Part shown: positions 3,324 to 23,017 of the stretch, in pieces
Numbering within the stretch: position 1 is the first letter of the stretch
Layout: every line of letters begins with the position of its first letter
From: a bacterium
GTDB lineage: Bacteria; Electryoneota; JAOADG01
Assembly: GCA_030247525.1 (NCBI GenBank)
Contig: JAOTSC010000002.1
Coordinates: forward strand, 571 to 64,570
Reading direction: 5' to 3'
DNA: 64,000 nucleotides
Made by a program: the position numbers and the translations under genes
Notes under the pieces: model-generated
Seen by the model: the letters and a program-made list of their open reading frames with translations, nothing else
What the model was told of the DNA's origin: nothing
Database searches by the model: none

Positions 3324-3792
3324 AATAAAAAATCTTCGTAGTTCAGGAGCTTATGTCCGGACATTGCTAATCCATCTGCTATCCATCTGCTACAAATTGG
3401 GGAAAGTACTGTGGTTCTGTTCGGAGCTACAGTGATCCATTTGAAAGCTGTTCCGTTTGGTTGGAGCCAGAAGGTCACCTCCATCGTTTCGACTTCATCC
3501 GGAACGCCGAGATCCCAGTACACTTTCTCTTACGATTGTCTACTCCATTCTACAACCTTCCGTTATCAAGCTCGTGAATTGGAGAAAGATTCTTAGTTGG
3601 GTTTCCTCTAAAATGAGAATGAGGAATTTTCCGCAATGATTGAGTGATATGACACAAGTTGAAAGTGTGGAAAGTTATGAGAAGGGTTTCTTGTTACTTT
3701 GGGCTCCACAATTCTTTTCTATGTACTGTAATAATAATTACATAGAATATCGTTGCGTTCTTTTTGCCGTATCGGGTGACTACACAAAGAAA

Positions 3793-3808
3793 CGGCACAG
3801 CTCTTGCA
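3793..3808 (+). promoter_or_regulatory. Sigma-54-type (-24/-12) promoter-like motif upstream of cytochrome cluster A
   Basis: cGGCAC-agctc-TTGCa with GG-N10-GC spacing, ~90 nt upstream of the GTG start at 3898 (RBS AGGAGG 8 nt upstream of the GTG). Confidence 0.35.
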
Positions 3809-4548: not shown

Positions 4549-4631
4549 ACCGGTAGTTTAGCTGCGTCCAGTTCAGTAAGACGAAGCGATCTTAAACGAC
4601 ATAGCTTTTTTTTTTACAGGGAATCAGTGTC

Positions 4632-5384
4632 ATGAAACGTCATTACGTCGGAATCCTAATGGTGGCATTAGCACTTTCTTTGTGCTGTGCGCTAGTTGCA
4701 AATGCCCAAATCGTTGGCACGAAGCACGACTTATCGCTAAACGGCGGTGGATATTGGGCTGGTAACGACCCGGCAAATCAAGTTTGTGTCTATTGCCATA
4801 CGCCCCACGCCGCATCGACGACCCAAAAGCCGTTGTGGAATCGTGCTGCAACCGCAGAAACTTTCATTCCGTACACCAGCTTGTCCTACAATGGTGGAAA
4901 TTACGCAGCCGACCCGACCGGACATCAACCCATGGGTGAATCGAAACTTTGCCTTTCTTGCCATGATGGTATCACGGCACTAAATGCATTACTTCACACC
5001 TATGGTCCCCCCATCCAAATGGTTGGTGGTTTCGACCAATTGGGTGATGTATATTACCCCGGTTCCCCTTACTCTACGGGAATGGGTGCGAACATCGGTG
5101 AAAACTTTCCCGGCGGCGCTGGTTCCGGCCATACGATCAACAACTTAGCAAACGATCACCCGGTTTCGTTTGCGTTCAACAACGCTTTGATTTTGGAAGA
5201 TGCAGGTGGCGGCGCAGCTCAACTGCAGTTACCAGCAACCGGCAGCGCAATCAAACTGTTTGGCACGAATGGCGACCAACTCGAGTGCAGCTCCTGCCAC
5301 AATGTTCACAGCAACACCAACGCACCATTCCTTGCGATGAGCAACAACGGAAGTGCGATCTGTTTAACTTGCCACATTAAGTAG
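4632..5384 (+). CDS. Periplasmic tetraheme c-type cytochrome, tandem paralog of 3898..4548
   Basis: Signal peptide. CVYCHTPH, CLSCHDG, CSSCHNVH, CLTCHIK, with the same motif order and spacing as the upstream gene. Confidence 0.8.
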   Translation: MKRHYVGILMVALALSLCCALVANAQIVGTKHDLSLNGGGYWAGNDPANQVCVYCHTPHAASTTQKPLWNRAATAETFIPYTSLSYNGGNYAADPTGHQPMGESKLCLSCHDGITALNALLHTYGPPIQMVGGFDQLGDVYYPGSPYSTGMGANIGENFPGGAGSGHTINNLANDHPVSFAFNNALILEDAGGGAAQLQLPATGSAIKLFGTNGDQLECSSCHNVHSNTNAPFLAMSNNGSAICLTCHIK

Positions 5385-5419
5385 TCTTAATCGGCTAAGC
5401 ATAGATAGAACTAAGTATT

Positions 5420-7126: not shown

Positions 7127-8159
7127 GCGACATTTCGCATCGATTGCAATAACCCTGCTGGCCGGAGTACTTGTTATTTCGGTTATCGGATGCTTTTCGT
7201 CTCAAGAAGCAGTAATCCGGCAGCCATTGAGCCCGATAGTATGGCCACAACTACCGGAACAAGCCCGTATCCGTTTCGAGTATTCCTTTCAGTCGCCGGA
7301 AGAGCTTGGTGTAAAAAAGGGATTGTTATCTTGGTTAGCAGGAGATTCTAAACAGAATCAGTTGATACAACCGGTTGCCGTGGCAGTGTCCGATGATGAG
7401 ACGATATATGTGGTTGATGTGACGGGTGTATTGTCGTCTTATCAAGTTGCGACGAAAAAGTACCGTCAACAACGATCAACAAAATCGGGATTACTTCATA
7501 CACCAGTTTCGTTAACGTTGGGAAAAAACGACTCCGTGTATTTAGTTGATTCAGAGAGCAAAAAGATTACAGTTTACACAAACAAACTTCATCCCGTTCG
7601 TGAATTGGAAACCGGGTTAGATCGTCCAGCCGGGATTGTTTGGGATAAGTGGTCGAATCGGCTATGGATTGCCGATGCCAAAGGAAATCGAGTTGTCGCA
7701 TTCAATTTGTCCGGCAAAGTAGTTGCCCAGATAGGGGATGGGCTCGATTCATTAACAAAGTTGAATACCCCAACACATCTATGCATCGACTCATTGGGAA
7801 TTTATGTAACCGATGCCTACAACTTTCAGGTGAAAAAGTATTCATTTGCGGGTACACTGACACAAACGTTTGGTAAGTTAGGTACTAATTCCGGAGCTTT
7901 TTCGCGACCGAAGGGAATTGCCATTGACTCTGACTCGAATCTGTATGTCGTCGATGCATTATTCGGTAATGTGCAAATTTTCAATCCGGAAGGAAAATTG
8001 TTGCTCTTTTTCGGAACAACGGGCGTAACCGAGCCGGGCAACTTCAATCTACCGAACGGAATCAGTATCGATCATCGTAACCGGATCTACGTTGCTGACA
8101 CCCATCACGGGATGATCCAGGTGTTTCAGTATCTGGCAAAACAGGCGACGACAAAATGA
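7089..8159 (+). CDS. NHL-repeat (six-bladed beta-propeller) lipoprotein
   Basis: Lipoprotein-type signal (VISVIGC). Repeated NHL-like units (YVVD/YVTD/YVAD ... G.IQVF). Paralog of 20577..21626 (both end ...VQVFQY). Start uncertain because the ORF overlaps the preceding gene. Confidence 0.7.
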   Translation: MHRERSVVALRDKRHFASIAITLLAGVLVISVIGCFSSQEAVIRQPLSPIVWPQLPEQARIRFEYSFQSPEELGVKKGLLSWLAGDSKQNQLIQPVAVAVSDDETIYVVDVTGVLSSYQVATKKYRQQRSTKSGLLHTPVSLTLGKNDSVYLVDSESKKITVYTNKLHPVRELETGLDRPAGIVWDKWSNRLWIADAKGNRVVAFNLSGKVVAQIGDGLDSLTKLNTPTHLCIDSLGIYVTDAYNFQVKKYSFAGTLTQTFGKLGTNSGAFSRPKGIAIDSDSNLYVVDALFGNVQIFNPEGKLLLFFGTTGVTEPGNFNLPNGISIDHRNRIYVADTHHGMIQVFQYLAKQATTK

Positions 8160-8245
8160 TGAACGACTCGAAAATAAAGTTTCAGACTCGATTTCAAGTT
8201 GTTACTGTAACCGCTGTTTGTTCGTTGTCTTGTGGGGAGGAGCCG

Positions 8246-9949
8246 ATGGGACATCCAAGCAAGCTTACCATCCCGAGAATGTTGGCTCGCATCTTCCCGA
8301 TTATCGTCTCAATGATGATATCACTCGCATTAGCACAGCCGGAAGCGGTGACCAATACAAAGCACAACCTGTCAAGTTCCGGGACTGGCAACATTCGCGC
8401 GGTGGCTGAAACTCAGGTTTGCATATTCTGTCACACCCCGCACGGTGCTTCTTCGGAAACGCCGCTTTGGAATCGCAACGCAGTAACTACCACGTTCAGT
8501 ATTTATCCGTCGGGTGGTTCGATGCAATCGACGGTTGGACAACCCAACGGCTCAAGTCGACTCTGTTTGTCGTGCCATGATGGCACTGCCGCGATTGGTG
8601 TGGTTCGTAGTCAAGCGGGACCGATTTCACTATTGGGAACAACTGTTGGTGGGATGTTACCGGCTGGTACAAGTAATTTGGGGGTGTCGCTTACCGACGA
8701 TCATCCGATTTCATTTACTCCCTCATTGCTTGATCCTGAAATTCGAAATCCGCTGCCTACCGATCCCGTTCATCTTGATCAATCCGGTCAAGTGCAATGC
8801 CGAAGTTGCCACAATCCCCACAACAACCAGTATGACGACTTCTTGGTAGCGACTACAAATCGGGGGACGTTGTGCACTACTTGTCATATCGAAAGCGGAT
8901 GGGATGTCTCTTCCCATGGCAATCCACAAAATCCATTATTCAATCAATTGACAGAGCAAGCATGTAATAGTTGCCACGTCCAACATACGGCAGCATCTGG
9001 TCCAAGGTTACTGCGAGCGGTAGAAGAAAATCTCTGTTTAAGTTGCCACGATGGTACCCAAAATGCGAGTTGGGAAACTTCTGGTGCTGTGAATATGATT
9101 ACGGTTTTCCAAAAGACTAGCCGACATAGTGTTTCGATGAATGCCGGGGTACACAATCCAGGCGAAGGTCCCTTGAACTCGATACCAACTCCTTCGAGCT
9201 ATTTACCGGAAGAATCGCCGATTGCCCAACGCCATGTAGAATGTGCCGATTGCCATAACTCTCATGCATCTACAACCGAAGACCAAGTTGGACAAATCAA
9301 TGGGGCAATTCGGAATGTGTGGGGTGTATCGGCAGGCGGCACAAAAGTTGATCCTGCGATTTTTGAGTACCAGATTTGCTTTAAGTGTCATGGAGACTCA
9401 CGCAATCTCCCGACGAATCAAACGAATAAGCGGCTGGAGTTCGCCATTACGAATGCCAGCTTTCATCCAGTGGTCGCTCCCGGTACGAGTTCGGATGTTC
9501 CCGGTTTGCTTGCACCATGGACGACATCTTCGACGATGAATTGTACCGACTGCCATAACAGCGATGAAGATGGTTCGCCACGTGGACCCCATGGTTCGAT
9601 ATACAGCCCATTGTTAAAACGAAACTATTATACTGGAACACGTGAACCGGAAACTGCGTCACTGTATGCATCATGTTATGAGTGCCATGATCGAACGAGT
9701 CTGTACAATCCTTCGGTTTCTCATTTCGGTGAGCATTCTCGACATGTGGTTTCCCAACAATTTTCCTGTTTCCTTTGTCACAGTTCTCACGGCAGCGCAA
9801 ACAACCGACACCTTATCCGGTTTGATAGCAATAATTTGAATATCTCACCCTCATCGAGTGGAAGATTAGAATATTTGCCCAGTGCGGATGGGCACGGAAC
9901 TTGCTTCCTGACTTGTCACGACCATAATCATAATCCGGGTATTTACTGA
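8246..9949 (+). CDS. Multiheme c-type cytochrome with 11 CxxCH plus 1 CxxxCH motif (about 12 hemes)
   Basis: ORF opens at 8156, but ATG 8246 is preceded by a GGGGAGGAG RBS and gives a clean signal peptide (MGHPSKLTIPRMLARIFPIIVSMMISLALA). Motifs: CIFCH, CLSCH, CRSCH, CTTCH, CNSCH, CLSCH, CADCH, CFKCH, CTDCH, CYECH, CFLCH and C-terminal CFLTCH (CX3CH). Its TGA stop overlaps the ATG of the next gene. Confidence 0.8.
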   Translation: MGHPSKLTIPRMLARIFPIIVSMMISLALAQPEAVTNTKHNLSSSGTGNIRAVAETQVCIFCHTPHGASSETPLWNRNAVTTTFSIYPSGGSMQSTVGQPNGSSRLCLSCHDGTAAIGVVRSQAGPISLLGTTVGGMLPAGTSNLGVSLTDDHPISFTPSLLDPEIRNPLPTDPVHLDQSGQVQCRSCHNPHNNQYDDFLVATTNRGTLCTTCHIESGWDVSSHGNPQNPLFNQLTEQACNSCHVQHTAASGPRLLRAVEENLCLSCHDGTQNASWETSGAVNMITVFQKTSRHSVSMNAGVHNPGEGPLNSIPTPSSYLPEESPIAQRHVECADCHNSHASTTEDQVGQINGAIRNVWGVSAGGTKVDPAIFEYQICFKCHGDSRNLPTNQTNKRLEFAITNASFHPVVAPGTSSDVPGLLAPWTTSSTMNCTDCHNSDEDGSPRGPHGSIYSPLLKRNYYTGTREPETASLYASCYECHDRTSLYNPSVSHFGEHSRHVVSQQFSCFLCHSSHGSANNRHLIRFDSNNLNISPSSSGRLEYLPSADGHGTCFLTCHDHNHNPGIY

Positions 9950-11241
9950 TGGCATTTCGAATGATGAAACGGGTAGTTATCGTTGCAATCACTCTTCTGA
10001 TCGGGTACTTAACTCTATCGGGAGCTGGCTCTGCACCTTTGCTACAGGTGATGTATCCTTCTAAAAGCAAGATGGAAGTGTCGACGCCTCATCATTATCT
10101 CGTGGGAGATGTCGATACGTTTACGGTAACCCGATTGGAATTGTCGCGCACTACCGAGCGGATTGATCAAATGACAGCAAAGTCCGGTTCCATTCGTAGT
10201 GAGTTTGTGAAAAAGGTTAGTGGATTGTTTTCCCGTGATTTCCAGATTACTAATTTTGAAATCACAGTGTTTTCCTTGAAACCGAATACGAAAGAAGTGA
10301 AGCATTCGATTTACTTCCCCGCACAGAATCGAGTCAACCGGGATGCTTTTTGGCAATCACACGAGTTTCAATCGATTTATGAGAAGGTTTTTAAGGATTC
10401 GTTGTTCCGTGGTCTCAATTTTGTCGCGAAAGGTAATCTTGTTTCCCATGTCGAGTTATCAAAACGGCGGTTGCTGGACAAACTCGGTTCAAAATTTGTC
10501 ATGCGGGTCGATTTATCACCCGGACAAAATGATTATACGCTTCGTGCGATGGACAATTCCGACCGAATTTTAGAGGAACACCGTTACTCATTCCTGTATA
10601 AACCAGCAGTGAGCGAAGAAATCAAGAGTTTACCGGGATACGAAGCGGTGAAGTTTCACACGCCGGAACAAGAACAAAACTGTGCCAGTTGCCACCGGAT
10701 GAAACCGAATGCATCGGAGTTGACTTCGAATACGGCAACTGTCCGATTGTGTTATCCTTGCCATGTCTGGGTGACTGCCAGTACCAATGTTCACTATCCC
10801 ATTACCGAATGGAATTGTTTCTACTGTCACAGTGCACCAAAATCCGGTGAATCCGGGTTCGATGTTTCCGATAAACGCAAAAGCGATCAAACCTGTTTTG
10901 AGTGTCACGAAGACCTGAAGGATGCTTTGGCGAAAACCGATTTTCCCCATGCTCCTGCTGGTTCCGGTGATTGTCTTATTTGCCATAACCCGCACGGCAG
11001 CGATTTTCGCGGGATGTCAGTCATGAAGCCGAACGACCTTTGTCTTTCCTGCCATGAGAAGAAATACAGCAAGGATCACCCTGTGATGATGCATCCCGTG
11101 CAGGGCGTTCGTGACAGCAAGTCTCCGAAACAAGAACTATCGTGCGTAAGCTGCCACAATCCGCACTATGGAAGTAATGAGAAACTCTTTTATAAAGCGA
11201 CCGGAACCTTCCAGCTTTGTCAGGAGTGCCACAAAAAATGA
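9949..11241 (+). CDS. Octaheme c-type cytochrome, membrane-anchored or secreted
   Basis: N-terminal hydrophobic anchor/signal. Eight CxxCH motifs (CASCH, CYPCH, CFYCH, CFECH, CLICHNPH, CLSCH, CVSCHNPH, CQECH). Translationally coupled to the upstream cytochrome (ATGA overlap). Confidence 0.8.
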   Translation: MAFRMMKRVVIVAITLLIGYLTLSGAGSAPLLQVMYPSKSKMEVSTPHHYLVGDVDTFTVTRLELSRTTERIDQMTAKSGSIRSEFVKKVSGLFSRDFQITNFEITVFSLKPNTKEVKHSIYFPAQNRVNRDAFWQSHEFQSIYEKVFKDSLFRGLNFVAKGNLVSHVELSKRRLLDKLGSKFVMRVDLSPGQNDYTLRAMDNSDRILEEHRYSFLYKPAVSEEIKSLPGYEAVKFHTPEQEQNCASCHRMKPNASELTSNTATVRLCYPCHVWVTASTNVHYPITEWNCFYCHSAPKSGESGFDVSDKRKSDQTCFECHEDLKDALAKTDFPHAPAGSGDCLICHNPHGSDFRGMSVMKPNDLCLSCHEKKYSKDHPVMMHPVQGVRDSKSPKQELSCVSCHNPHYGSNEKLFYKATGTFQLCQECHKK

Positions 11242-13385
11242 ACGTACGTCTGTACAAACATCGAATTGATCAATGGCGCGACTGTCATTCCGTTCCGCTC
11301 AACTTGTCTATCCTTGTTTTGTTGTTGATTCTCGGTATTGTGCCAGCCAATGCACAAACCCTTTTCGGACAAAGTGGTGCGCTTTCCACTCCTTCCGCTG
11401 ACACCTATCCTGCAGGAAATTTCTCGGTTGGAAGTTACTTTCGTTCTTCATGTTTTCAGCCAGAACGGTTCGACGCTACCAGTGTTTATTTGATTACTGG
11501 ATTAAGTCCAACCACCGAAGCGAGTTTTTCTTTCCCGGGAATTTGGGGTAACAAAACACCACCTGCTCATTTTGAAATCCCGGCGCAAATCAGCTTCAAG
11601 CAAAAAGTGTATTCCTTACCGAAAAACCGCTTCCGCTTTGCGGTAGAAGGAATCATGCAACGCCGCCCGATGGGGGAAGATTCCGTATATGATCAAAGTG
11701 CAAATTGGGGTCTCGGTGTAATAGGCAGCAGTACATTTGGTCGAAATACCTATCATCTGTTTTACAGTCGCATGGTGTCTCGCGGCAACAAGAAGAGTCC
11801 ACAGGATTTTGCCGGCGCTGGATTGGATCGCTCGATTTCCGAGAAATTGGTTTTCAATTCCGATATTTATGTCGTGTCCGAGAATTTCTTTACCCAGCGC
11901 AAAGAAATCACTACGATGATGGGTTTTCGTTATCGGGTGAACTCCTATTTCCATGCAATTGGTGGCGGCGGTGTCGGTATTACCAAGGGTAGCAATGATT
12001 GGCAGTATTTCCTCGGACTTTCGTTTACAACCGACATCAAGAAATCCATCTATACAACCTTAACAGAAACGGTTCCACCCCCACCACCGCAAAGCGATCT
12101 TTACGAACAGCCCGGTTACGACATTGCCGCAGGTATTCCACCACCCGGATCACCGGAAATCATTGAAGCTCCGCATAAGAATGGCAATGGGAATGGTAAT
12201 GGCAACGGTAAGAAGAAACCACCATTTATTTTTACCCGGTTGTTCTTCGATGAGAATTCATTTGAGCTAAGTGAATTCGAGCAACAGAACCTCCAGTTAA
12301 TTTCGCGGGACATTAATAAAATCGGTCGCGACCAGTGTTTAACGGTTATCGGTCACTCCGATCCCACCGGTTCGAATCAAGAGAACTATGCCATTGCGAT
12401 GACTCGTGCGTTAACCGTTGCGGGAAAGATTATCGACAGTGCCGGGTTATCGCCGGAGAGCGTCATTATTGGCGGCGCGGGCGAAGTAATGTTGTCGGAT
12501 CGAAGAACGACATCGAATGCGTTGCAGATGAACCGGCGTGTCGAACTTCGCACCTGTAATCGGTTAAGTGTGCAATTGGACACGATACCTGAAGATAGTT
12601 GTACCATTCGTCAAGCAATTCAATGGCGTTCAGGCTCACACGGTATAGCAAAAGGTTTCAAACAGCTTTCCGTACAAATGGCGAACTGTCTGACGAAACT
12701 GGGCGAATTGCAACCAGAAGAATTCTATATCATCTCACCGAAGTGGGATCCCCAAGTTGATTATCGGACAACGGTTTACCGGACAGCGCTATTTTGGTTG
12801 TACACTGTGCAAACAAAGCAAATAGCACCCGAACGTTGTTTTCTTAAACTTCAGCCCGAATTGAATTTTGCCGGTGAAACTGAGAAGAATGCAGCATCGG
12901 AAGTTGGAATTGACGCACAACTCATTCATGTTGAAACTGGGTCAGACTCAGCGACCGTTCGGATTCGCTTTACCAATCAACAAAAAAGTGTCAAACGCTC
13001 GGTTTATATTGTAGTCACAGCGAATATCGATGGCAAACAAATTTCCGTTGTAGGTGATACACTACCTGAAGATGCGATTCCCGAGTACAATACGGGAAAA
13101 CGGTATCAATTCAAACACCAAATCGAACGAGAGTTTTCATTTCCACTTACTACGCAGGGAAGCAGTAAACCGGACTTCCAAGTGTACTTCTACGATGCAA
13201 ATGGAAAAACCCTTGGTACTACGCAAGCACTAAAATCGGAAGGGTTATCGCCACGATGGGCGAAGCGGTTTGCCGAAGCGCTTCATCTATCCGAAAAGGC
13301 AGTCGAACAACCGAGTGACTTGGAAATCAGTATTCGTAAGTATCGCAGCAACGATGTTAGAGATTTTAATACCGCAGAAAAGTGA
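11238..13385 (+). CDS. OmpA-family outer-membrane protein with NG-repeat and Pro-rich linker
   Basis: Signal peptide (LSILVLLLILGIVPANAQ). Central PPPPP and NGNGNGNGNG low-complexity linker. OmpA/MotB-like C-domain motif (LTVIGHSDPTGSNQENYAIAMTRALTV...NRRVELR). Start taken at the ATG just after the upstream stop. Confidence 0.65.
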   Translation: MNVRLYKHRIDQWRDCHSVPLNLSILVLLLILGIVPANAQTLFGQSGALSTPSADTYPAGNFSVGSYFRSSCFQPERFDATSVYLITGLSPTTEASFSFPGIWGNKTPPAHFEIPAQISFKQKVYSLPKNRFRFAVEGIMQRRPMGEDSVYDQSANWGLGVIGSSTFGRNTYHLFYSRMVSRGNKKSPQDFAGAGLDRSISEKLVFNSDIYVVSENFFTQRKEITTMMGFRYRVNSYFHAIGGGGVGITKGSNDWQYFLGLSFTTDIKKSIYTTLTETVPPPPPQSDLYEQPGYDIAAGIPPPGSPEIIEAPHKNGNGNGNGNGKKKPPFIFTRLFFDENSFELSEFEQQNLQLISRDINKIGRDQCLTVIGHSDPTGSNQENYAIAMTRALTVAGKIIDSAGLSPESVIIGGAGEVMLSDRRTTSNALQMNRRVELRTCNRLSVQLDTIPEDSCTIRQAIQWRSGSHGIAKGFKQLSVQMANCLTKLGELQPEEFYIISPKWDPQVDYRTTVYRTALFWLYTVQTKQIAPERCFLKLQPELNFAGETEKNAASEVGIDAQLIHVETGSDSATVRIRFTNQQKSVKRSVYIVVTANIDGKQISVVGDTLPEDAIPEYNTGKRYQFKHQIEREFSFPLTTQGSSKPDFQVYFYDANGKTLGTTQALKSEGLSPRWAKRFAEALHLSEKAVEQPSDLEISIRKYRSNDVRDFNTAEK

Positions 13386-13392
13386 GGATTGG

Positions 13393-13911
13393 ATGTTTTG
13401 TATCCCCCGTAACTGGATGTTTCGTTTGTTCGCTATTGTTGTTTTAATGATGACTGTAAGTATTGTGATGGCATACCCGCAGGGACATCCGATGGCGGGT
13501 GGTTTAAAGAAGTCGGCGGATAGCACGAAAAGTATGGATTCGATCCCCCAAACACCGCTCCCGACATTCGATAAAGTTTGGATTTCGATTCGGAAAAGTA
13601 ACGGCGACAGTTTAGCGCCAATGGCAATGATGCCGAATGAACTCTATGCACTAAAAGGAACCGATGTCTTGTTACGTGTTACCGATTGCTATAGTCATTG
13701 GATGATTAAAGGAAAAGCGGTAAACTACTCGAAAGAGGAAAAGAACCCGGCGGTGAAAGTCGAGATACTTAAGGGTGAGACGGTATTGTATACCCGTTGG
13801 GCATTCAAAAATATCCCGTTCTTTGGAATGAACAACATGATGGGACACACCCAATCGGGTGATAATCAACTCTATTTCACTTTGACAAAATATGAAGGGA
13901 TGAAGTGGTAA
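13393..13911 (+). CDS. Hypothetical secreted protein, last gene of cytochrome cluster A
   Basis: ORF opens at 13270 but overlaps the upstream gene. ATG 13393 gives a signal-anchor (MFCIPRNWMFRLFAIVVLMMTVSIVMAYP). No recognisable domain. Confidence 0.4.
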   Translation: MFCIPRNWMFRLFAIVVLMMTVSIVMAYPQGHPMAGGLKKSADSTKSMDSIPQTPLPTFDKVWISIRKSNGDSLAPMAMMPNELYALKGTDVLLRVTDCYSHWMIKGKAVNYSKEEKNPAVKVEILKGETVLYTRWAFKNIPFFGMNNMMGHTQSGDNQLYFTLTKYEGMKW

Positions 13912-14096: not shown

Positions 14097-15587
14097 ATGC
14101 TAATAAAAAAATTCAGTTTGCGATACCGGATCATCGCCTCGATGGTCTTAGCAATGACGATACCCATTGCCATATCGAGCTGGATTTCGATGAACGAGCA
14201 CCGGGAGTTAATGATTGCACAACACAAGCGATATCAGCAGTCGCTGATACAACTCGCCTTGAACAGCGTCATGCTGTTTATGGACACCAACCACCCCACT
14301 GAAATCCACAACTCCCTGACAGGACTACGCGATGAAACCCACATCAAATCGATTCGAGTCATTTCCAATGAGGGTATAATTCGTTACAGCTCGAGTCATC
14401 ATGAAATCGGTTCTGCCGTTCCCGATTCGTTGTGGCGGCGCTTATCTAAGAAACCGATTGATATGAAGACGCAAGATGTCATCGATTTCACAAACCAAAC
14501 AATGACACTCGTTATGCGGATACCTAAGGAGCAGCGCTGTTTGGCTTGTCATGACGAACAAAGTCTCAACTTGGGTTACATAAGTATCGTCGACGACATA
14601 TCTAACATAAACACCGAGCTGAATATCCACCTTCGCGAATATTTAGTGTTATCGACCGGGATAATACTTACCGTCGTGTTGACGATATTTGGTATTCACC
14701 TCCGTTTTGTTCAGCGCAACATAAAGCACATGGGCGGCGCAATATCAAAAGTCGAGCGGGGCGATTTTCGCTCGCATATCCCGGTTGACGACTCAGAAGA
14801 GATTGGGACATTAGCGCGCTCGTTCAATGGCATGATCGATCGCTTGAATGTGATGCGCGAAGAGCTGCGGATTGCACACTTGAAGGAATTGGAACGTGCC
14901 GATAAACTTGCCAGTGTCGGGCAGTTGGCTGCGAGCATGGCACATGAGATAAAAAATCCGGTTGCCGGCATCTCCAGTGCGATGCAAGTCTTGATTGAAG
15001 ACCCCGATCAGGACCAGCAAAATGTCCAGATTTTTGAAGAAATCGCCCGTCAAGTAACACGCATTGATCACGCCGTGAATAGTTTGTTGTATTTTGCTCG
15101 ACCGAGTGAACCACGGATGTCATTCACTTCGGTTGACACCCTGTTGGAATTTTCGATGAAACTGATTCTTCAACAGGCACGACAAGCGAATGTAGTTGTC
15201 AAACAGCATGTGGATGAAAACATCCCGGAGTTGTATGTCGATCCCGGACAAATCGAACAAGTTCTGGTGAATCTTTCGATAAATGGCATTCAAGCAATGC
15301 CGTCCGGAGGTACATTAACGATTTCGGTGACATACCAAAAAGAGTCAGACAAGATATTCTTTCGAATCAACGATACCGGAGAAGGTATCCCACCCGAAAA
15401 ATTGAAAGAGATTTTCAAGCCGTTCTACACCTCCAAGCATAAGGGAACCGGTCTTGGACTATCGATTTGCACCGGTATCATTACCCGCCATGGCGGCGAG
15501 TTGTTTGTAGATAGTGTTGTAGGCGCTGGTTCAACATTTTCATTCGTTTTACCACGGGCTTCCCTTGCTTCCCAATCCAAGCTGTAG
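14097..15587 (+). CDS. Sensor histidine kinase with a c-type heme-binding motif (CLACH) in the periplasmic sensor domain
   Basis: Two TM segments flank a ~150-aa periplasmic domain containing CLACHDEQ. HAMP region, HisKA H-box (ASMAHEIKNPVAGI) and HATPase_c G-boxes (NDTGEGI, GTGLGLSI). Confidence 0.8.
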   Translation: MLIKKFSLRYRIIASMVLAMTIPIAISSWISMNEHRELMIAQHKRYQQSLIQLALNSVMLFMDTNHPTEIHNSLTGLRDETHIKSIRVISNEGIIRYSSSHHEIGSAVPDSLWRRLSKKPIDMKTQDVIDFTNQTMTLVMRIPKEQRCLACHDEQSLNLGYISIVDDISNINTELNIHLREYLVLSTGIILTVVLTIFGIHLRFVQRNIKHMGGAISKVERGDFRSHIPVDDSEEIGTLARSFNGMIDRLNVMREELRIAHLKELERADKLASVGQLAASMAHEIKNPVAGISSAMQVLIEDPDQDQQNVQIFEEIARQVTRIDHAVNSLLYFARPSEPRMSFTSVDTLLEFSMKLILQQARQANVVVKQHVDENIPELYVDPGQIEQVLVNLSINGIQAMPSGGTLTISVTYQKESDKIFFRINDTGEGIPPEKLKEIFKPFYTSKHKGTGLGLSICTGIITRHGGELFVDSVVGAGSTFSFVLPRASLASQSKL

Positions 15588-15728
15588 ATAACTTTTCCAG
15601 TAACCCCCTCTTAGCACTTGAATTAGAACCGTTTCTTATTAACTTACATTGCGAATCGGCTATCGAACTCACGATTCTTTTGAATCAGACCGATTAGCAA
15701 TGAAAGAACAATCATACAATTCCATTGC

Positions 15729-17129
15729 TTGTGGACAGGGGTGAGCGTGTCGGATTACAAAATCAAATTGTTGATCATCGACGATGAAAAGTTGATCGGC
15801 TGGTCGTTAGCCAAACAATTTGAAAAGGACGGTTATCAGACTTTTACAGCTTTGTCGGGGGAAGAAGGACTCGAAGTGTTCCGTCGGGAATCCCCGGAAG
15901 TGGTGTTCCTCGATAACCGGTTACCCAAGAAATCGGGATTGGAAGTCCTGAAAGAAATTCGACATCACTCACAATCCACCATCGTCATCTTTATGACTGC
16001 CTACGGATCTACCGAGACCGCCGTCGAAGCTATGAAACTCGGTGCCTACGATTATGTGAACAAACCGTTTCAATACAACGATGTCAATTCAATTGTCGAA
16101 CAAGCAGTTAAGGCAAACAAACTCGACGCGGAAGTTCTGGATATCCGTCGTAAGCTTATGAGCCGCTACGGTTTTTCCAGCATCATCGGCGAATCGAGCC
16201 AGATGATGCACATCTTTGAGATTATCCGAAAGATAACACATTCAGAAGCTTCGACAGTTTTGATTTATGGCGAATCCGGCACCGGCAAGGAAGTAGTCGC
16301 CCGGGCGATTCATTACGAATCAAATCGTTTCCAGAAACCATTTGTAGCGATTAACTGTGCAGCATTACCGGAAACCCTATTAGAGAGCGAGTTGTTTGGC
16401 TATGAGCGTGGTGCATTTACCGACGCCAAGCAGATGAAACGCGGACAGTTCGAGTTGGCGGAGGGGGGCACCCTGCTCCTCGATGAAATCGGTGAACTCA
16501 GTATCCAAATGCAGGTGAAATTACTTAGAGCGTTGGAAACCCGAACATTTAAACGACTGGGTGGTACACAGGACACCAAAATCGATGTCCGGGTCATAGC
16601 AGCGACGAATCGTGACCTTCAAGCAGCAATAGCTGAAGGGCGGTTCCGGCAGGATCTTTATTTTCGTCTGAAAGTCGTCACGGTGCAGCTTCCCCCTCTG
16701 CGAGAACGTCCCGAAGATATTCTGATACTGTCTACTTACTTCATTAATCACTTCAACAGGGAATTTTCCAAAAAAGTTACCGGACTTGATGAACCAGCTC
16801 GATGTGCAATGCTTGCGTACGAGTGGCCGGGAAATGTCCGTGAGCTCAAGAATGTGATTGAACATAGTCTCGTACTCGAAAATGATACCCTCATCCGGTT
16901 AGAGCATCTTCCAATAGAAATCCTTGGCAAAAAGCCTCAAAAAGTAGATCCCAGCGCTGTCCAATTAGAGTTTCCGGTCACCGGATTCCCTTTAGAGGAA
17001 ATCGAGAAGCTGGCAATCCAGAAAGCACTTAACTACGCCAACGGCAACCAATCAAAAGCGGCAGCTTTGCTTTCAGTCACCCGTGACACAATTCGTTACA
17101 AAATGAAGAAGTTCGGATTACTCGATTGA
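15729..17129 (+). CDS. Sigma-54-dependent response regulator (NtrC family: REC + AAA+ + Fis-type HTH)
   Basis: REC domain (LLIIDDE...FLDNRLP...), sigma-54 activator motifs (GESGTGKE, GAFTDA, ESELFGYERGAFT, LLDEIGEL) and C-terminal HTH. Confidence 0.85.
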   Translation: MWTGVSVSDYKIKLLIIDDEKLIGWSLAKQFEKDGYQTFTALSGEEGLEVFRRESPEVVFLDNRLPKKSGLEVLKEIRHHSQSTIVIFMTAYGSTETAVEAMKLGAYDYVNKPFQYNDVNSIVEQAVKANKLDAEVLDIRRKLMSRYGFSSIIGESSQMMHIFEIIRKITHSEASTVLIYGESGTGKEVVARAIHYESNRFQKPFVAINCAALPETLLESELFGYERGAFTDAKQMKRGQFELAEGGTLLLDEIGELSIQMQVKLLRALETRTFKRLGGTQDTKIDVRVIAATNRDLQAAIAEGRFRQDLYFRLKVVTVQLPPLRERPEDILILSTYFINHFNREFSKKVTGLDEPARCAMLAYEWPGNVRELKNVIEHSLVLENDTLIRLEHLPIEILGKKPQKVDPSAVQLEFPVTGFPLEEIEKLAIQKALNYANGNQSKAAALLSVTRDTIRYKMKKFGLLD

Positions 17130-17398
17130 GCGAGTTTTTCGGGAAAGCTGAGGATTTACGCGCAGGGAACTGGGTGATATTGCACAGTCCAATTCCGATG
17201 TGATAATTACCGGTCGATACCACCCCTTGGTATTTGCGGAAAAGAAGCATCTGAGTTGTCATCTTGGATGGTGTCGCCTGGCAAGAATTTTCAATAATGA
17301 TTTTATGTTGTTGTTATTATAGTGTTTATATTATACTAAGCTGATCATATCCCATTCGAGTCTTTCCTTCCCGGTCATCAGGTGAATTTCCGCATATA

Positions 17399-17414
17399 TG
17401 GCACACTCTTTGCC
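17399..17414 (+). promoter_or_regulatory. Sigma-54 promoter (TGGCAC-N5-TTGC) upstream of cytochrome cluster B
   Basis: Exact -24/-12 consensus TGGCACactctTTGCc, ~58 nt upstream of ATG 17472 and immediately downstream of the sigma-54 activator gene. Confidence 0.5.
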
Positions 17415-17471
17415 AATCTGTCGGTAGCTAAATAGGCTTTACCAACCCAAGGTATCGAAGGATTCCCAAGA

Positions 17472-18710
17472 ATGTTATATCACTCGAAACTCTCACGCAC
17501 CGGAACGATTTGCATCGTTGCACTCATGGTCGCCGTGACCATCACGTCTGCCCTTGCGCTTCCTTCCTTTATCCATGCCACTCGCACCCTTGACGGGATT
17601 ACCGTCCAGCCGGAGCGGGTCGCTGTAGCTCCCAATGGCATAGTTTATCTGTCCGAACCTCAAAGCAACCGGATCTTAGCTGTTTCGACCGAGGGGATCG
17701 TTGTGGGTTCGATTCCGGTTGCTAATGTAATCGCTGTTGGTGTTCTTCCGAATGGCTCACTACTTGCCAGCCACGGAACCCAAGTCGATTGCTACAATGC
17801 GAATGGCACTTTTCAATTCTCATTGGGTAACGGGATCGGCGAATTCAACAAGGCAGGCGAGATTGCTGTTGCAACCGATGGTTCGATCTATGTGACCGAT
17901 ACCCGCCAACACGTTGTCAAAGTATACCAACCTGATGGAACTTTCCGGTTTGCATTCGGCAGCCGTGGTTCCGCCAACGGACAATTTGTATTTCCGACCG
18001 GCATCGCCCTAAGCGCAAACGAAACCGAAGTTTTTGTTGCCGATCAAGGCAATAGCCGCATCAACGTATATAGCCGCACCGGCAGCTATCTTCGTAGTTT
18101 CGGCCGTGCAACCTATCAAGTCGGTTCAAGCTGGGTATTTGATGGTACGTTTACCCGCGTTCAGGGAATTTCGGTCGATCAACTGAATCGACTCTACATT
18201 TCTGATTTGTATCAGAATGATGTACAAGTTCTTTCAGCCCAAGGCGAATTCTTAGGCAGAATCGTTCCTGGAACCAGTCTTCCCTTCGCTCATCCTGCAG
18301 ATTTGGTCGTAAGTGGTAACCAACTCTATATCCTTTCGACTTTCTCGAATCAAGTGTTCGCATATTCCATCGATGGCGTTACCAGTGTCAACAATCCAGC
18401 CGCCGCGATTGTTTCGCACTTTGCGCTGAATAACAATTATCCCAACCCCTTTAATGGTACGACTCGAATTCCGTTCGCCCTTAAGCAAAACGGTAAAGTA
18501 TCGTTGACCATTTGGAACGTACTGGGTCAGCAAGTCGGTACTCTCATCAATGCGAATATGAATGCGGGATACCATGAAGTCGTTTGGAACACTACCTCCG
18601 GCAGCTACGGCGCAGTGACCAGCGGTGTTTATTATTGCAAACTTTCCGTTGTCGACGAATCCGGAACCTCTCTTTACCAGTCGACCGGTAAAATGCTCTT
18701 TTTGAAGTAA
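17472..18710 (+). CDS. NHL-repeat beta-propeller protein with T9SS C-terminal sorting domain
   Basis: Signal peptide. NHL-like repeats (YVTD..., VFVAD..., YISD...). C-terminal NNYPNPFNGTTRIPFALKQNGKVSLTIWNVLGQQVGTL (T9SS CTD). Confidence 0.7.
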   Translation: MLYHSKLSRTGTICIVALMVAVTITSALALPSFIHATRTLDGITVQPERVAVAPNGIVYLSEPQSNRILAVSTEGIVVGSIPVANVIAVGVLPNGSLLASHGTQVDCYNANGTFQFSLGNGIGEFNKAGEIAVATDGSIYVTDTRQHVVKVYQPDGTFRFAFGSRGSANGQFVFPTGIALSANETEVFVADQGNSRINVYSRTGSYLRSFGRATYQVGSSWVFDGTFTRVQGISVDQLNRLYISDLYQNDVQVLSAQGEFLGRIVPGTSLPFAHPADLVVSGNQLYILSTFSNQVFAYSIDGVTSVNNPAAAIVSHFALNNNYPNPFNGTTRIPFALKQNGKVSLTIWNVLGQQVGTLINANMNAGYHEVVWNTTSGSYGAVTSGVYYCKLSVVDESGTSLYQSTGKMLFLK

Positions 18711-18734
18711 CCGATTTTACTAAGTCTCTACACA

Positions 18735-20381
18735 ATGGAGCGATTCTCAATGTTTTTGAAAAAACATCTTTTCATAGCGATTGCGGTGGTATGCGCATTG
18801 ACTTCTGTTGCCCTTTCGGAAGTAAATGAGCTTCAAGCTCCGCACGATGCGACGAACGCGATGGCATGCGCCAGTTGCCACGTACCTTATAATACAGTGC
18901 CACAACCGGTTCCGGAGAATTGGTTAACCACTTCGGTTTGCCAAAGCTGCCATACCAGCGGTGGTGTTGCTTCCAACATGAAAACTCACGTCGCCAATGC
19001 CGATACCGTATGGTGCCAGACTTGCCACGATCCGCACATGCACCAGACGACGTATCCCCGTTGGTATGTCAAGAATCAGATCATCACTCCGAATAGCGGC
19101 GCTCGTCCGTCGGTAATTCGTGATTCGCTTGACCTGATGCACGGCGCCACTGGTGTGGTTCAACCCTATGATGGTGTTTGTGAAACCTGCCACACTACTA
19201 CCCCGATTTTCCGCAACAATGCTTCGGGTCTGCACCCGACTACTGCTGCGTTGATGACCCATGAAGGTTCGGACAAGTGCACGAACTGTCACCAGCACAA
19301 GAACGGCTTCCAGTCTTCGACCAGTGCAAACACCTGTTTCGCTTGCCACTCCGCTTCCACGAATTCAGTCCGCGATACATCGTTGCATTACACCGCGTCG
19401 AATATGTACAGCCGTTTCGATACGCTGCGCACCACTTCTCACCCGGTTCGCAAGCTCTATGACAATGGACGCTTTGTGTTCGCCAAGGTGGAAGGCAATG
19501 CCGCAATCACGACCAAACTACTTCGTACGCCGTCATGGTTTTCTGGTACATCTTTAACCAGTTCATCCATGATCACCTGTACGGATTGCCACGGTGACTC
19601 TGCCGCAACCGCTTCGAAGGGTATGCATGGCTTGAGCTATCCAATGATGGAAGAGACGACCGCAGTTGCACTTCAGTTGCGTGCCAGTTTACGCCTCGGT
19701 ATGAATCAGGAATACGGTCCCAACTACGATCTGACTGGTAACGCTCTGTGCTATGCTTGCCATACCCCGGAATACTATCGACTGAGCGCTTCTGCTCGTC
19801 CGACCGGTTTCATGCGTTCAGACTCGAATCGTTGGTCCCGTCACTATTCGCACGTCGTGTACCACAATGCGAATACTCAGGAACGTCAGGAAAACTGCGT
19901 GACTTGTCACGGTGTCCATGGTGGCGCCACGACAGCACAAGATACTACGTTCCCAATAAATCGTGCATACGGTCGCACAGGCTTAATCCGTTGGTCGAAG
20001 CAAGCAACCGGTTTGGTGTTTGAACACGGTCAGACTGGTCCGGACTCCATTACCGTTCCAGACTCTACCTTGAAGACTGCGTTAACCGGCGGTTCGCCGC
20101 AAATCGCAACTGGTTATAAATCAGCTGCGTACGGATATTTCAAGTTCAAGAACAAGACCTATGATCGCACAATTCCACCGTTGTTACAAACAATGTGGAA
20201 TCTACGAGATACCGCTATCGTGAACGTAGCTGGTGATACCATTGCTGATTACTACCTTGGCTTCTGCTACGTCAATTGCCATACTGGTAAGGATCTTCCA
20301 ATGGTTGCTGGTGACACAGTTGGTACAAAGCATCCGAATAATCACTACGGTCGCTCTGTTTCCTATCGCATTTGGCGATAA
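18735..20381 (+). CDS. Multiheme c-type cytochrome with 9 CxxCH plus 1 CxxxCH motif
   Basis: Signal peptide. CASCH, CQSCH, CQTCH, CETCH, CTNCH, CFACH, CTDCH, CYACH, CVTCH and C-terminal CYVNCH (CX3CH). Confidence 0.8.
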   Translation: MERFSMFLKKHLFIAIAVVCALTSVALSEVNELQAPHDATNAMACASCHVPYNTVPQPVPENWLTTSVCQSCHTSGGVASNMKTHVANADTVWCQTCHDPHMHQTTYPRWYVKNQIITPNSGARPSVIRDSLDLMHGATGVVQPYDGVCETCHTTTPIFRNNASGLHPTTAALMTHEGSDKCTNCHQHKNGFQSSTSANTCFACHSASTNSVRDTSLHYTASNMYSRFDTLRTTSHPVRKLYDNGRFVFAKVEGNAAITTKLLRTPSWFSGTSLTSSSMITCTDCHGDSAATASKGMHGLSYPMMEETTAVALQLRASLRLGMNQEYGPNYDLTGNALCYACHTPEYYRLSASARPTGFMRSDSNRWSRHYSHVVYHNANTQERQENCVTCHGVHGGATTAQDTTFPINRAYGRTGLIRWSKQATGLVFEHGQTGPDSITVPDSTLKTALTGGSPQIATGYKSAAYGYFKFKNKTYDRTIPPLLQTMWNLRDTAIVNVAGDTIADYYLGFCYVNCHTGKDLPMVAGDTVGTKHPNNHYGRSVSYRIWR

Positions 20382-20412
20382 TTCGCACTACTTTGTTGTA
20401 ACTTTCTAAAAG

Positions 20413-20442
20413 CAGGGTATCGGGCAACCGATACCCTGTTTT
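20413..20442 (+). terminator. Rho-independent terminator after the 10-heme cytochrome gene
   Basis: CAGGGTATCGG-gcaa-CCGATACCCTG followed by TTTTA. Confidence 0.5.
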
Positions 20443-20492: not shown

Positions 20493-20508
20493 TGGGTGTT
20501 ACATTGCA
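20493..20508 (+). promoter_or_regulatory. Possible sigma-54-type promoter upstream of the NHL lipoprotein gene
   Basis: TGGgtg-ttaca-TTGCA with GG-N10-GC spacing, ~70 nt upstream of ATG 20577. Weaker match than the other two. Confidence 0.3.
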
Positions 20509-21640: not shown

Positions 21641-23017
21641 CTATTCTTCCAGTTTCTTTCGCTGTCGGGTTTGGAATAAGACCACTGTGAGACCGACCAT
21701 TAAAACGATACAACCGGCGTACACAATGGTGGTTCCCGGGTCGTAGGATACGGTAAACACCGATATTTTCGGCGGTCCGGGTATCACGCTGTATTGGTAG
21801 ATTTTCCAACCGTGATACGTTAACGGCGCGTTCATTTCGATGTCATACGCGAAGGAACTCGCCGATCCCTCATTCACCGTCACCTCACTCGAGATCCCTG
21901 CAGCGATTTTGTTGCCGGGATAATACTTCTGATTGACTTTGTTTAGACGTAGTGCAAATCCCAATTCATCGGTGTGGGAAGTCAAACGAAACAGAACATC
22001 GTTGTGGTTAGAAGCGAGTTCCGAATTCTTCTTCATCCAGAATGCATTTGATCGCCCGCCCGTAGGATCTTCGATTCGGAATTTTAATGCAAACTCGCCT
22101 TCGCCGCTTTTTGCCGGGACAAAATTCCTCATCTGCACCGCAAAACTCTCTAAGGAGCGTACCGTAACGGTATTGATACTGTCAAGTACCAGTTTCTGTC
22201 CAAGCGAAATCGGTTGCAGAATGGGCTGTGGCGCATGGACGGCGAGATAGGATAAATCGGATTCGGTTGCAACCAGTAAATAATCTGCAGGCGCTTCCAG
22301 CAGATAGGACATATCCATTTTATCGCGGGGAACAAAGGCGAACAGCAGTTTTTTGCCATTCGGCAACATGACTTCGCCATCCGGTCCATCGCCACACCAC
22401 AATTGCTTATCGACTTCTTTTCCCAGTGCTTCCAACGTTACATCAATGAGCGGTACACCGGTTGGATCGGAGACGTAGGTGAGTTTTCCCACTCCCGATG
22501 GGAGGTAGCGGAGTAGTTCGATCCGGCCTTTATTGAAGGGGAGGTCGATACGTTTCGGTCGTCCGTCTTCTGAGCGCGGAATTGTCTCAAAGCGAAGCGG
22601 TAACACCGCCGAACGACCATCGGATAACTGAACTTCCAGTTGATAAGAGTTGCGGTTGAGTAGCCTTGTTGACTCGCCTTCCGCTAACTTAATTGTTCCC
22701 TCGATACTGTATTCCCGACTGATAACCGCACCAATTAACACGACAAGTACACCGGTATGAGTCATCAACCACCCGATTTGCCCGATCCGATAGGGAAACC
22801 GTTGTACGGTACATGCGATGAGATTGACTGCTAATAAACCCAACAGAAAGTCAAACCAGATGCTATGGTAGATGTCGAGTTGTGCCAGCAAAGTTCCTGC
22901 CGTTGCTTCATACGCAGTCCCGGTCATCATCGCAAGCGCAATGACGACGAGCAGGACAATCGTCAACTGGATCGAGGCAAGAAAGCGATAAATCTTGGCA
23001 AGCAATGTTACTCCCAT
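21641..23017 (-). CDS. ResB/CcsB-like cytochrome c biogenesis (System II) protein
   Basis: ResB-like topology: three N-terminal TM helices, a large periplasmic domain, and a C-terminal TM (TIVYAGCIVLMVGLTVVLFQ). N-terminus resembles ResB (..IVLLVVIALAMMTGT...). No ccsA/resC partner in the window. Confidence 0.5.
   Translation of the reverse strand: MGVTLLAKIYRFLASIQLTIVLLVVIALAMMTGTAYEATAGTLLAQLDIYHSIWFDFLLGLLAVNLIACTVQRFPYRIGQIGWLMTHTGVLVVLIGAVISREYSIEGTIKLAEGESTRLLNRNSYQLEVQLSDGRSAVLPLRFETIPRSEDGRPKRIDLPFNKGRIELLRYLPSGVGKLTYVSDPTGVPLIDVTLEALGKEVDKQLWCGDGPDGEVMLPNGKKLLFAFVPRDKMDMSYLLEAPADYLLVATESDLSYLAVHAPQPILQPISLGQKLVLDSINTVTVRSLESFAVQMRNFVPAKSGEGEFALKFRIEDPTGGRSNAFWMKKNSELASNHNDVLFRLTSHTDELGFALRLNKVNQKYYPGNKIAAGISSEVTVNEGSASSFAYDIEMNAPLTYHGWKIYQYSVIPGPPKISVFTVSYDPGTTIVYAGCIVLMVGLTVVLFQTRQRKKLEE

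Follow-up and report, generated by a model that had tools for sequence, protein, structure and literature searches.

A predicted heme-c sensor kinase and sigma-54 activator between two cytochrome gene clusters, with conserved candidate promoters and activator sites

We analysed a 64-kb stretch of bacterial DNA on contig JAOTSC010000002.1 (the window, in whose numbering all coordinates are given unless a comparison locus, with an L number, is named) and describe here a two-component system, consisting of a sensor histidine kinase and an NtrC-family sigma-54 response regulator, that lies between two groups of cytochrome genes, clusters A and B (Table 1). The comparison set comprised loci with homologues of the kinase (L001 to L008, L091 and L092) and loci with a gene cluster of the cluster A type (L088, L089 and L090). 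Kinase identity to the window protein is 61% in L001/L002, 51% in L003, 49% in L006, 41-45% in L004 and L005, and 30% in L091. L007 is a Desulfuromonadaceae contig, while L008 (Nitrospirae metagenome-assembled genome JAJYJM010000012.1) and L092 are from Nitrospirota. L003 is on contig_1 of ENA ERZ21878129, from a 4.3-Mb relative. A scan of a genome collection with a back-translated pattern of the kinase H-box yielded 80 kinases, most of them unrelated and none a close relative; of these, only L008 was of use. Chance expectations were taken from 100 shuffles of the window.

The sensor kinase and its partner activator

The kinase is predicted to cross the membrane twice, with two hydrophobic segments enclosing a loop of about 150 amino acids. 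A preliminary description of this DNA, made from the sequence alone, had placed a c-type heme-binding motif, CLACH, in this periplasmic loop, and the motif does lie there, at residues 148-152 between the two segments. Its further suggestion that the loop resembles the Geobacter heme sensors GSU0935 and GSU0582 was borne out by sequence, profile and predicted fold, with both the CXXCH motif and the equivalent of GSU0935 Met60 being kept. When the periplasmic part was searched alone, it gave one significant match in the PDB, 3B42, which is the GSU0935 sensor (E=3e-4), and in this single-sequence alignment PKEQRCLACHD of the kinase pairs with PNEQRCQSCHD of 3B42. Chain numbers in 3B42 are converted to the published GSU0935 numbering by adding 34, so that His152 of the kinase is aligned to chain His110 (His144) and Met62 to chain Met26 (Met60). 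In GSU0935, His144 and Met60 are the axial heme ligands (PMC8396549).

These four positions, and no others in the sensor domain, withstand wide divergence. In an alignment of 23 full-length kinase homologues with 66% to 26% identity, the sole invariant sensor residues are Met62, Cys148, Cys151 and His152, at sensor-domain identities down to about 15%. A profile built from 22 sensor domains matched 3B42 with E=6.9e-14 and 3B47 with E=1e-8, over profile positions 7-137 of 149, and 20 of the 22 aligned homologues matched PF21563 (best E=4.4e-8), with 10 of the 22 also matching PF11845/Tll0287. When the same profile was run against 1.84 billion representatives, we recovered 2690 proteins (representatives at 50% identity) at E<=1e-3, most of them 480-525 amino acids long with the sensor domain at about residues 30-180, and the CXXCH motif was retained in 143 of the 146 top family representatives.

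In addition, we modelled the sensor domain with AlphaFold from the homologue alignment (predicted local distance difference test score, pLDDT, 89.5). In the model, a long N-terminal helix ends at the methionine, and a helix at positions 114-118 bears the CXXCH motif between strands 103-111 and 126-135; the sCache_heme fold likewise has its CXXCH on a short helical insertion between beta strands (PMC12889525). The top Foldseek match of the model was again 3B42, at about 16-18% identity, followed by the Cache domains of WalK, DctB, DcuS and CitA. The root-mean-square deviation between the model and 3B42 is large, but a large value is to be expected here, because the crystal chain is domain-swapped and the model is a monomer. 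Judged by these sequence and fold matches, the periplasmic domain is a single-Cache, PAS-like member of the GSU0935/GSU0582 heme-c sensor family, and the outward-facing domain of the kinase very probably bears a covalently attached heme. Some family members possess extra sensor units (P0020, P0366, P0368, P0383 and P0398): P0020 has a second RCLACH within an insertion in the sensor domain, and several proteins of 715-726 amino acids match the sensor profile three times in tandem.

The gene after the kinase encodes an NtrC-family sigma-54 activator, as the preliminary description had stated, with Pfam matches to Response_reg (E=6e-27), Sigma54_activat (E=5e-71), AAA_lid_14 and HTH_8 (E=4.5e-14). 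It is the sole activator gene in the window, and its start was chosen by alignment to the orthologue of 460 amino acids in L001. In the resulting numbering, the receiver aspartate lies at about residue 56, Walker A (GESGTGKE) at 175, the sigma-54 contact loop at 222, Walker B (DEIGE) at 246 and a Fis-type helix-turn-helix at the C-terminus, and the catalytic signatures are invariant across seven orthologues. The contact loop reads GAFTDA in place of the canonical GAFTGA. This variant is found in every readable activator that is paired with a heme-sensor kinase (window, L001, L003-L008, L091 and L092), across FCB-like, Desulfuromonadaceae and Nitrospirota loci, and in 1 of about 36 activators that adjoin other kinases in the comparison loci. 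The latter, an unrelated activator in L013, is followed by a TGGCAT-N5-TTGC site. We take GAFTDA to be a working natural variant and a sequence marker of the kinase/activator module. A published regulon survey retained only proteins with an exact GAFTGA (PMC12316311), and surveys restricted in this way would miss the whole GAFTDA group. Orthology with AtoS/AtoC, ZraS/ZraR and NtrC was considered and rejected on NCBIfam scores, which fall far short of the equivalog cut-offs (AtoC 490 against a cut-off of 714, ZraR 374 against 760, AtoS 260 against 646).

Promoters and paired dyads upstream of the clusters

Upstream of cluster B, we confirmed the perfect -24/-12 motif that the preliminary description had reported 58 nt before the first gene. 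No other site in the 64 kb matches TGGCAC-N5-TTGC exactly; shuffled windows lead one to expect 0.09 exact matches (8 of 100 shuffles contained at least one). In seven of seven lineages, the interval from the activator gene to the gene that follows it contains a GG-N10-GC motif with at most two mismatches, reading TGGCACactctTTGC in the window, TGGCATactctTTGC in L001, TGGCACactatTTGC in L003, TGGCATactatTTGC in L006, TGGAATgttctTTGC in L004, TGGAATatactTTGC in L005 and TGGTATccccaTTGC in L007. When the four closest intergenic regions were aligned, at a mean identity of 40%, promoter B was the sole clean conserved block.

The variant proposed upstream of cluster A also held up, with a single mismatch. 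Counterparts of promoter A lie 64-139 nt before the orthologous first cytochrome gene in five of five loci, with GGCAC- or GGCAT-N5-TTGC in L088, L089, L090 and L005; the motifs are CGGCACagctcTTGC in the window, AGGCACgcctcTTGC in L088, CGGCACacttcTTGC in L089, TGGCATattagTTGC in L090 and TGGCACattaaTTGC in L005. We calculate that a match with GG and GC fixed and no more than one mismatch has a probability of about 1.8e-5 per position, which amounts to about 0.008 per 450-nt upstream region. Promoters A and B stand above chance because they are conserved at orthologous positions in diverged loci, and the presence of sigma-54 promoters before both clusters is thus supported by the comparative sequence data.

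A third motif, which had been put forward before the second NHL gene, did not survive. It has three mismatches, lacks a counterpart in the three closest syntenic loci (L001, L003 and L006) and has no activator-type dyad nearby, and we rejected it as no better than chance. Matches with one mismatch at 9890, 17753 and 19666 fall within genes and were put down to chance for that reason. The kinase and activator genes themselves are served by neither a -24/-12 motif nor a dyad. A scan of 3300-23200 for sigma-70 promoters and terminators gave fewer matches than the shuffles, none of which lay before the genes of clusters A and B or accounted for expression of the kinase and activator.

The preliminary description had also suggested looking for inverted repeats, as upstream activator sequences (UAS), ahead of the promoters, and such repeats were found before both A and B. 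Each site, UAS-A and UAS-B, is a pair of 16-bp dyads with the consensus TGnGn-N6-nCnCA, in which G at position 4 and C at position 13 are conserved, and the first dyads of the two sites (TGAGGAATTTTCCGCA and TGAGGATTTACGCGCA) are nearly identical. The distance to the downstream -24 element is 173 nt for UAS-A (promoter A) and 250 nt for UAS-B (promoter B). As a single unit, the dyad core TGnG-N8-CnCA occurs at chance frequency (19 in the window, about 15 in shuffles). The tandem form TGNG-N8-CNCA-N5-TGNG-N8-CNCA occurs once in the window, at UAS-A, and in 0 of 100 shuffles, and the tandem at the UAS-B spacing likewise occurs once, with none in the 100 shuffles. L001, L003, L005, L006, L088 and L089 each contain a single tandem, which precedes a sigma-54 motif, and none was found elsewhere in about 208 kb; in L088 (at 2714) and L089 (at 2673), it lies upstream of the orthologous promoter A.

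Both UAS-A dyads are among the top hits in the window of a position weight matrix. We then used a matrix trained on the close group only and applied it to the held-out loci L004, L005 and L090, where six of the seven regions upstream of promoters contained a site of at least 9 bits (background, 0.028 per region). In the more distant L091, dyads lie just after the activator gene, and TGGCACggagtTTGA is found 73 nt before a cytochrome gene. The tandem dyads are therefore put forward as candidate activator-binding sites.

The distance from the dyads to promoter B is 250 nt in the window, 250 nt in L001, 252 nt in L003 and 250 nt in L006, despite the divergence of the DNA in between, which suggests a looping constraint or an unrecognised site for a bending protein. 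The spacer itself (17187-17398 in the window, 12936-13148 in L001, 13730-13943 in L003 and 13221-13432 in L006) is AT-rich and of near-random identity. In L003, an insert between the activator gene and the dyads (12993-13700) contains a 175-nt direct repeat (95% identical, 244-nt period) together with shorter C-rich repeats; this insert is upstream of the dyads, yet the 252-nt dyad-promoter distance has been retained.

The flanking clusters and the spread of the module

The preliminary description had set the kinase and activator between two cytochrome clusters, each with a sigma-54 motif, and this arrangement was confirmed, with gene order and both promoters conserved. In L001/L002, L003 and L006, the order is cluster A, a small secreted protein, kinase, activator, an NHL protein with a type IX secretion tail, a multiheme cytochrome and a second NHL protein. 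Beyond the second NHL gene, L001 has a ResB-like gene on the opposite strand, L003 has a gene without a Pfam match, and L006 ends earlier. The order kinase, activator, NHL gene, multiheme cytochrome gene is kept down to 41% kinase identity. In L004 and L005, an NHL gene and cytochrome genes again follow the pair; the operon of the cluster A type has shifted to the downstream side, and upstream there is a cytochrome-TPR operon. In L091, NHL and cytochrome genes come before the pair and a small cytochrome after it. L004 (20137-20629) and L005 (17553-18125) have a separate gene for a lone receiver domain ahead of the second NHL gene, and the window lacks such a gene; the L004 gene has its own TGGCGCgtattTTGC motif 64 nt upstream and no dyad above threshold.

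Outside this group, the Desulfuromonadaceae locus L007 (13242-21503) carries the pair, then TGGTATccccaTTGC, a PEGA/FG-GAP protein of 917 amino acids and a cytochrome of more than 1690 amino acids with a GSu_C4xC__C2xCH motif. Its pairing of a beta-propeller with a cytochrome differs, yet looks to be under the same kind of control. In the Nitrospirota locus L008 (7989-12504), pilin-like genes (N-terminal GFTLLELMVV) are followed by a kinase with the heme motif and a GAFTDA activator; an exact TGGCACgcagtTTGC comes after the pair, and then a heme-less secreted protein of 424 amino acids.

In the window, clusters A and B probably encode an extracellular electron-transfer apparatus. The product of 5513-7126, encoded between the small cytochromes and the NHL lipoprotein, is a candidate for the outer-membrane porin of a porin-cytochrome conduit. 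The small secreted protein of about 170 amino acids, whose gene lies directly upstream of the kinase gene in the window, L001, L003 and L006, may act beside the sensor as an accessory partner in the periplasm, or its gene may be the last of cluster A. After cluster B lies a terminator-like hairpin (stretch 20405-20450, 46 nt; -26.7 kcal/mol, z = -7.7), and hairpins of different sequence occupy the same place in L001 (about 16530-16570) and L006 (about 16620-16655). It probably ends the cluster B transcript, in which case the second NHL gene (20577) needs a promoter of its own. The ResB-like gene further downstream is relevant because periplasmic CXXCH proteins require a heme-attachment system.

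Five window proteins have a C-terminal type IX secretion sorting domain (5-1540, 17472-18710, 34160-36028, 48304-50445 and 61281-63947), and the presence of such tails on at least five proteins suggests an FCB-group-like organism, though nothing narrower. For the alpha-glucan phosphorylase, a housekeeping protein, the nearest homologues reach 70% identity. The gene of a GGDEF diguanylate cyclase (43961-44974, minus strand) adjoins that of a TonB-C protein (42833-43909) and is apparently unrelated to the sensor/activator circuit. An Rfam scan of 13-21 kb gave no match.

Table 1. Features of the window, in window numbering; aa, amino acids; TM, transmembrane segment.
Feature	Position	Strand	Details
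Sensor histidine kinase, two-pass membrane protein, 496 aa	14097..15587	+	Pfam HAMP 204-251, HisKA 275-337 (His283), HATPase_c 382-488
Kinase membrane segments	TM1 ~residues 12-31, TM2 ~181-203	+	Hydropathy
Periplasmic heme-c sensor domain (predicted)	residues 32-182, nt 14190-14642	+	Homology to 3B42/3B47, model, fold search
CLACH, Cys148-His152, c-type heme attachment motif	14538..14552	+	His152 predicted proximal ligand, equivalent of GSU0935 His144
Met62 codon, predicted distal heme ligand	14280..14282	+	Aligned to 3B42 chain residue 26 (GSU0935 Met60)
NtrC-family sigma-54 enhancer-binding response regulator, 460 aa	15747..17129	+	Probable start GTG 15747; longest open reading frame from 15729
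UAS-A, candidate activator site, two 16-bp dyads	3620..3656	.	TGAGGAATTTTCCGCA (3620-3635), TGAGTGATATGACACA (3641-3656); starts 21 bp apart
UAS-B, candidate activator site, two 16-bp dyads	17149..17186	.	TGAGGATTTACGCGCA (17149-17164), TGGGTGATATTGCACA (17171-17186); starts 22 bp apart
Promoter A, -24/-12, CGGCACagctcTTGC	3793..3807	+	One mismatch (first base, CGGCAC); 105 nt before GTG 3898; predicted start ~3819
Promoter B, -24/-12, TGGCACactctTTGC	17399..17413	+	Exact TGGCAC-N5-TTGC; 58 nt before ATG 17472; predicted start ~17425
Earlier-proposed third motif, TGGGTGttacaTTGC	20493..20507	+	Three mismatches; not supported as a sigma-54 promoter
Cluster A, putative regulated operon	3898..13911	+	Pfam, NCBIfam, heme-motif counts; gene order conserved in L001, L003, L006
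Two 4-heme cytochromes (cluster A)	3898-4548, 4632-5384	+	Heme-motif count
Conserved ~537-aa protein (cluster A)	~5513-7126	+	Length range 537-572 aa; no Pfam/NCBIfam match
NHL lipoprotein (cluster A)	7089-8159	+	
Lipoprotein cytochrome (cluster A)	8156-9949	+	11 CXXCH + 1 CX3-4CH; lipobox-like SLSC near N-terminus
8-heme cytochrome (cluster A)	9949-11241	+	8 CXXCH
722-aa OmpA-domain protein (cluster A)	11217-13385	+	
Small conserved secreted protein, ~170 aa (cluster A)	~13393-13911	+	No family match; block D-x-Y-x-H-W-x-I-K-G-K-x-V-N
Cluster B, putative regulated operon	17472..20381	+	Gene order conserved in L001, L003-L006
NHL beta-propeller with type IX secretion C-terminal tail (cluster B)	17472-18710	+	
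Multiheme cytochrome (cluster B)	18735-20381	+	9 CXXCH + 1 CX3-4CH
Intrinsic-terminator-like hairpin	20413..20442	+	11-bp stem, GCAA loop, then TTTT
ResB-like cytochrome c maturation protein (System II)	21641..23017	-	Pfam ResB E=6e-26; same position occupied in L001

A model of the circuit, its alternatives and related systems

We propose that the two-component system makes sigma-54-dependent transcription of the two flanking cytochrome operons respond to the state of a periplasmic c-type heme, and on the sequence evidence we put the probability of this proposal at roughly 0.7. By analogy with the Geobacter sensors, the heme would be covalently attached at Cys148 and Cys151, with His152 as one axial ligand, and its reduction, or the binding of NO or CO, would change Met62 as the sixth ligand. 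Since Met62 is predicted to end the long helix that runs from TM1, such a ligand switch would shift the transmembrane and HAMP helices and alter autophosphorylation at His283. Once phosphorylated (at Asp ~56), the activator would assemble at the paired dyads, reach the sigma-54 polymerase at promoters A and B through DNA looping, and use ATP hydrolysis to open them. The circuit might be on either when the heme is reduced or when it is oxidised. A redox- or heme-sensing circuit that switches on the cytochrome and NHL operons through sigma-54 had been the overall suggestion of the preliminary description, which is supported for the sensor and the promoters of clusters A and B, and not for the promoter of the second NHL gene.

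Several observations weigh against this proposal. The sigma-54 contact loop of the activator (residues 222-227, nt 16410-16427) is GAFTDA and not GAFTGA, with the Phe and Thr kept and the fifth residue, Gly, replaced by Asp. No RpoN box was found among the proteins of the 64-kb window. Taken alone, the window kinase scores 19.4-21.5 bits against PF21563, below the gathering cut-off of 27. The dyad pattern was first spotted by eye in sequences that were later used for counting, a circularity that the held-out matrix only partly removes, and dyads are absent from the homologue loci of Desulfuromonadaceae (L007) and Nitrospirota (L008 and L092). The function of clusters A and B is assigned from gene composition only. 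Finally, in the two Nitrospirota loci, the available downstream DNA has no cytochrome genes. In other phyla, the module evidently has targets other than cytochromes, and the occurrence of the pair without downstream cytochromes in Nitrospirota would make the cytochrome link lineage-specific and the module older than that link.

The alternative that survives best, although we regard it as less likely, keeps the same architecture and regulon, but the signal read by the heme, through displacement of a ligand, is a diatomic gas (NO, CO or O2) instead of the periplasmic redox poise. Under nitrosative or oxic conditions, such a circuit would protect the cytochrome apparatus or repress it, and the signal would be its only difference from our proposal. 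In the domains of GSU0582 and GSU0935, Met60 is replaced by NO in either redox state and by CO in the reduced state (PMC8396549), family members are described as NO-binding sensors in a 2026 preprint (PMC12889525), and the invariance of Met62 in the 23 homologues also fits gas binding. However, the Geobacter sensors show a redox-linked spin and ligand switch as well (PMC8396549), and the regulated genes encode electron-transfer proteins, not NO detoxification. Nothing in the sequence separates the two signals.

There is a considerably smaller chance that the activator controls cluster B only, the motif and dyads of cluster A serving another sigma-54 activator encoded elsewhere. Such a division would fit the departure of promoter A from the consensus at its first base and the different dyad-promoter distances (173 nt for A, 250 nt for B). 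It is harder to reconcile with the two dyad pairs, which share their half-sites, spacer length and 21-22 bp repeat in addition to nearly identical first dyads, and with the lack of any other activator gene in the window. Moreover, L004 and L005, in which the operons are rearranged, have sites of the same type before all cytochrome operons around the pair.

Two further alternatives are very improbable. The CXXCH might be a relic or a chance occurrence in an ordinary heme-free, ligand-binding Cache domain, as the score of the window protein below the PF21563 cut-off and the fold matches to WalK, DctB and DcuS would allow, but the CXXCH and Met62 are invariant in 23 homologues whose sensor identity falls to about 15%, 143 of 146 representatives keep the CXXCH, the motif lies exactly where heme-bound crystal structures have it, and a ResB-like gene is nearby. 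Equally, the -24/-12 matches might be fortuitous, with the operons read from housekeeping-sigma promoters and the activator acting elsewhere, given that an exact match arises by chance in about 8% of shuffled windows and that no rpoN was seen in the window, but 5-7 diverged loci carry the motifs at orthologous positions between flanks of near-random identity, the motifs co-occur with the conserved tandem dyads, and the sigma-70 scan stayed below shuffle counts with no match before cluster A or B genes.

Within the proposed heme-to-sigma-54 circuit, we tentatively consider that the sensor heme may exchange electrons with the periplasmic pool feeding the controlled cytochromes, so that it would act as a direct electron-acceptor gauge that tunes synthesis of the outer-membrane conduit, and that the heme-c kinase and GAFTDA activator may form an old, co-inherited module (FCB-like, Desulfuromonadota and Nitrospirota). 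If true, this would be the first heme-c sensor kinase with a defined DNA site, promoters and regulon. Periplasmic heme-c sensors have been known since the Geobacter structures, and the control of the synthesis of extracellular electron-transfer machinery is poorly understood outside Geobacter and Shewanella. The locus offers a complete and testable wiring diagram in an uncultured lineage, comprising Cys148, Cys151, His152, Met62, the activator, the 16-bp dyad, two promoters and two operons, and the sensor domain, DNA sites and promoters are short enough for testing in a heterologous host.

With GSU0935 and GSU0582 (PDB 3B42 and 3B47; PF21563), the sensor shares the fold, homology over its whole length, the CXXCH helix, the His and Met ligands and the placement between two transmembrane segments followed by HAMP. 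These proteins are chemotaxis receptors, whereas here the output is a histidine kinase, and identity is only about 16-18%. Closer in architecture are the heme-c sensor histidine kinases of G. sulfurreducens (GSU0283, GSU0303, GSU0356, GSU1302, GSU2314, GSU2816 and GSU2916; PMC8396549) and the sCache_heme-HK architecture catalogued in a 2026 preprint, which groups the GSU0935/GSU0582 sensors with Tll0287/DUF3365 as sCache_heme (PMC12889525); they have the same combination of heme-c sensor, HAMP and kinase core. Unlike in the Geobacter kinases, the promoters, activator sites and target operons here can be read from comparative data. In the literature searched, whose coverage was incomplete and is not proof of absence, we found no regulon, target promoter or DNA site for any heme-c sensor kinase.

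Among the putative target genes, cluster A recalls the Pcc recipe of Geobacter and Ignavibacterium album, in which a periplasmic 8-heme cytochrome and a 12-heme cytochrome of the outer membrane are combined with a porin-like protein (PMC4245776). Cluster A likewise has an 8-heme cytochrome, a lipoprotein cytochrome with 12 motifs and a protein of about 540 amino acids without a family match as the candidate porin. It differs from Pcc in adding the NHL lipoprotein, the 722-aa OmpA-domain protein and two 4-heme cytochromes. The Pcc clusters of Geobacter carry a different regulator, of the TetR type.

The regulatory half of the system belongs to a familiar class, since two-component systems of the NtrC type with paired upstream sites are textbook knowledge. 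As in NtrB/NtrC, ZraS/ZraR and AtoS/AtoC, the activator combines a receiver, an AAA+ domain and a Fis-type helix-turn-helix, and the transmitter resembles AtoS and ZraS. The NtrC-type arrangement is shared too, with paired dyads about two helical turns apart placed 100-250 bp upstream of a -24/-12 promoter. The GAFTDA loop, the sensor and the target genes set it apart from the NtrC, ZraR and AtoC systems, and its scores are below the equivalog cut-offs. The upstream activator sequence of NifA is TGT-N10-ACA, a 16-bp dyad with TG...CA ends, and several dyads here, of the TGTGT-N6-ACACA type, also fit it. The consensus, by contrast, is TGnGn-N6-nCnCA with pairs 21-22 bp apart, and the activator is of the response-regulator type, whereas NifA has a GAF domain. 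The kinase and the activator are thus of known types, whereas the wiring of promoters and activator sites does not seem to have been described before. As read from the compared sequences, the new content of the locus is this conserved wiring, the dyad consensus and the GAFTDA signature.

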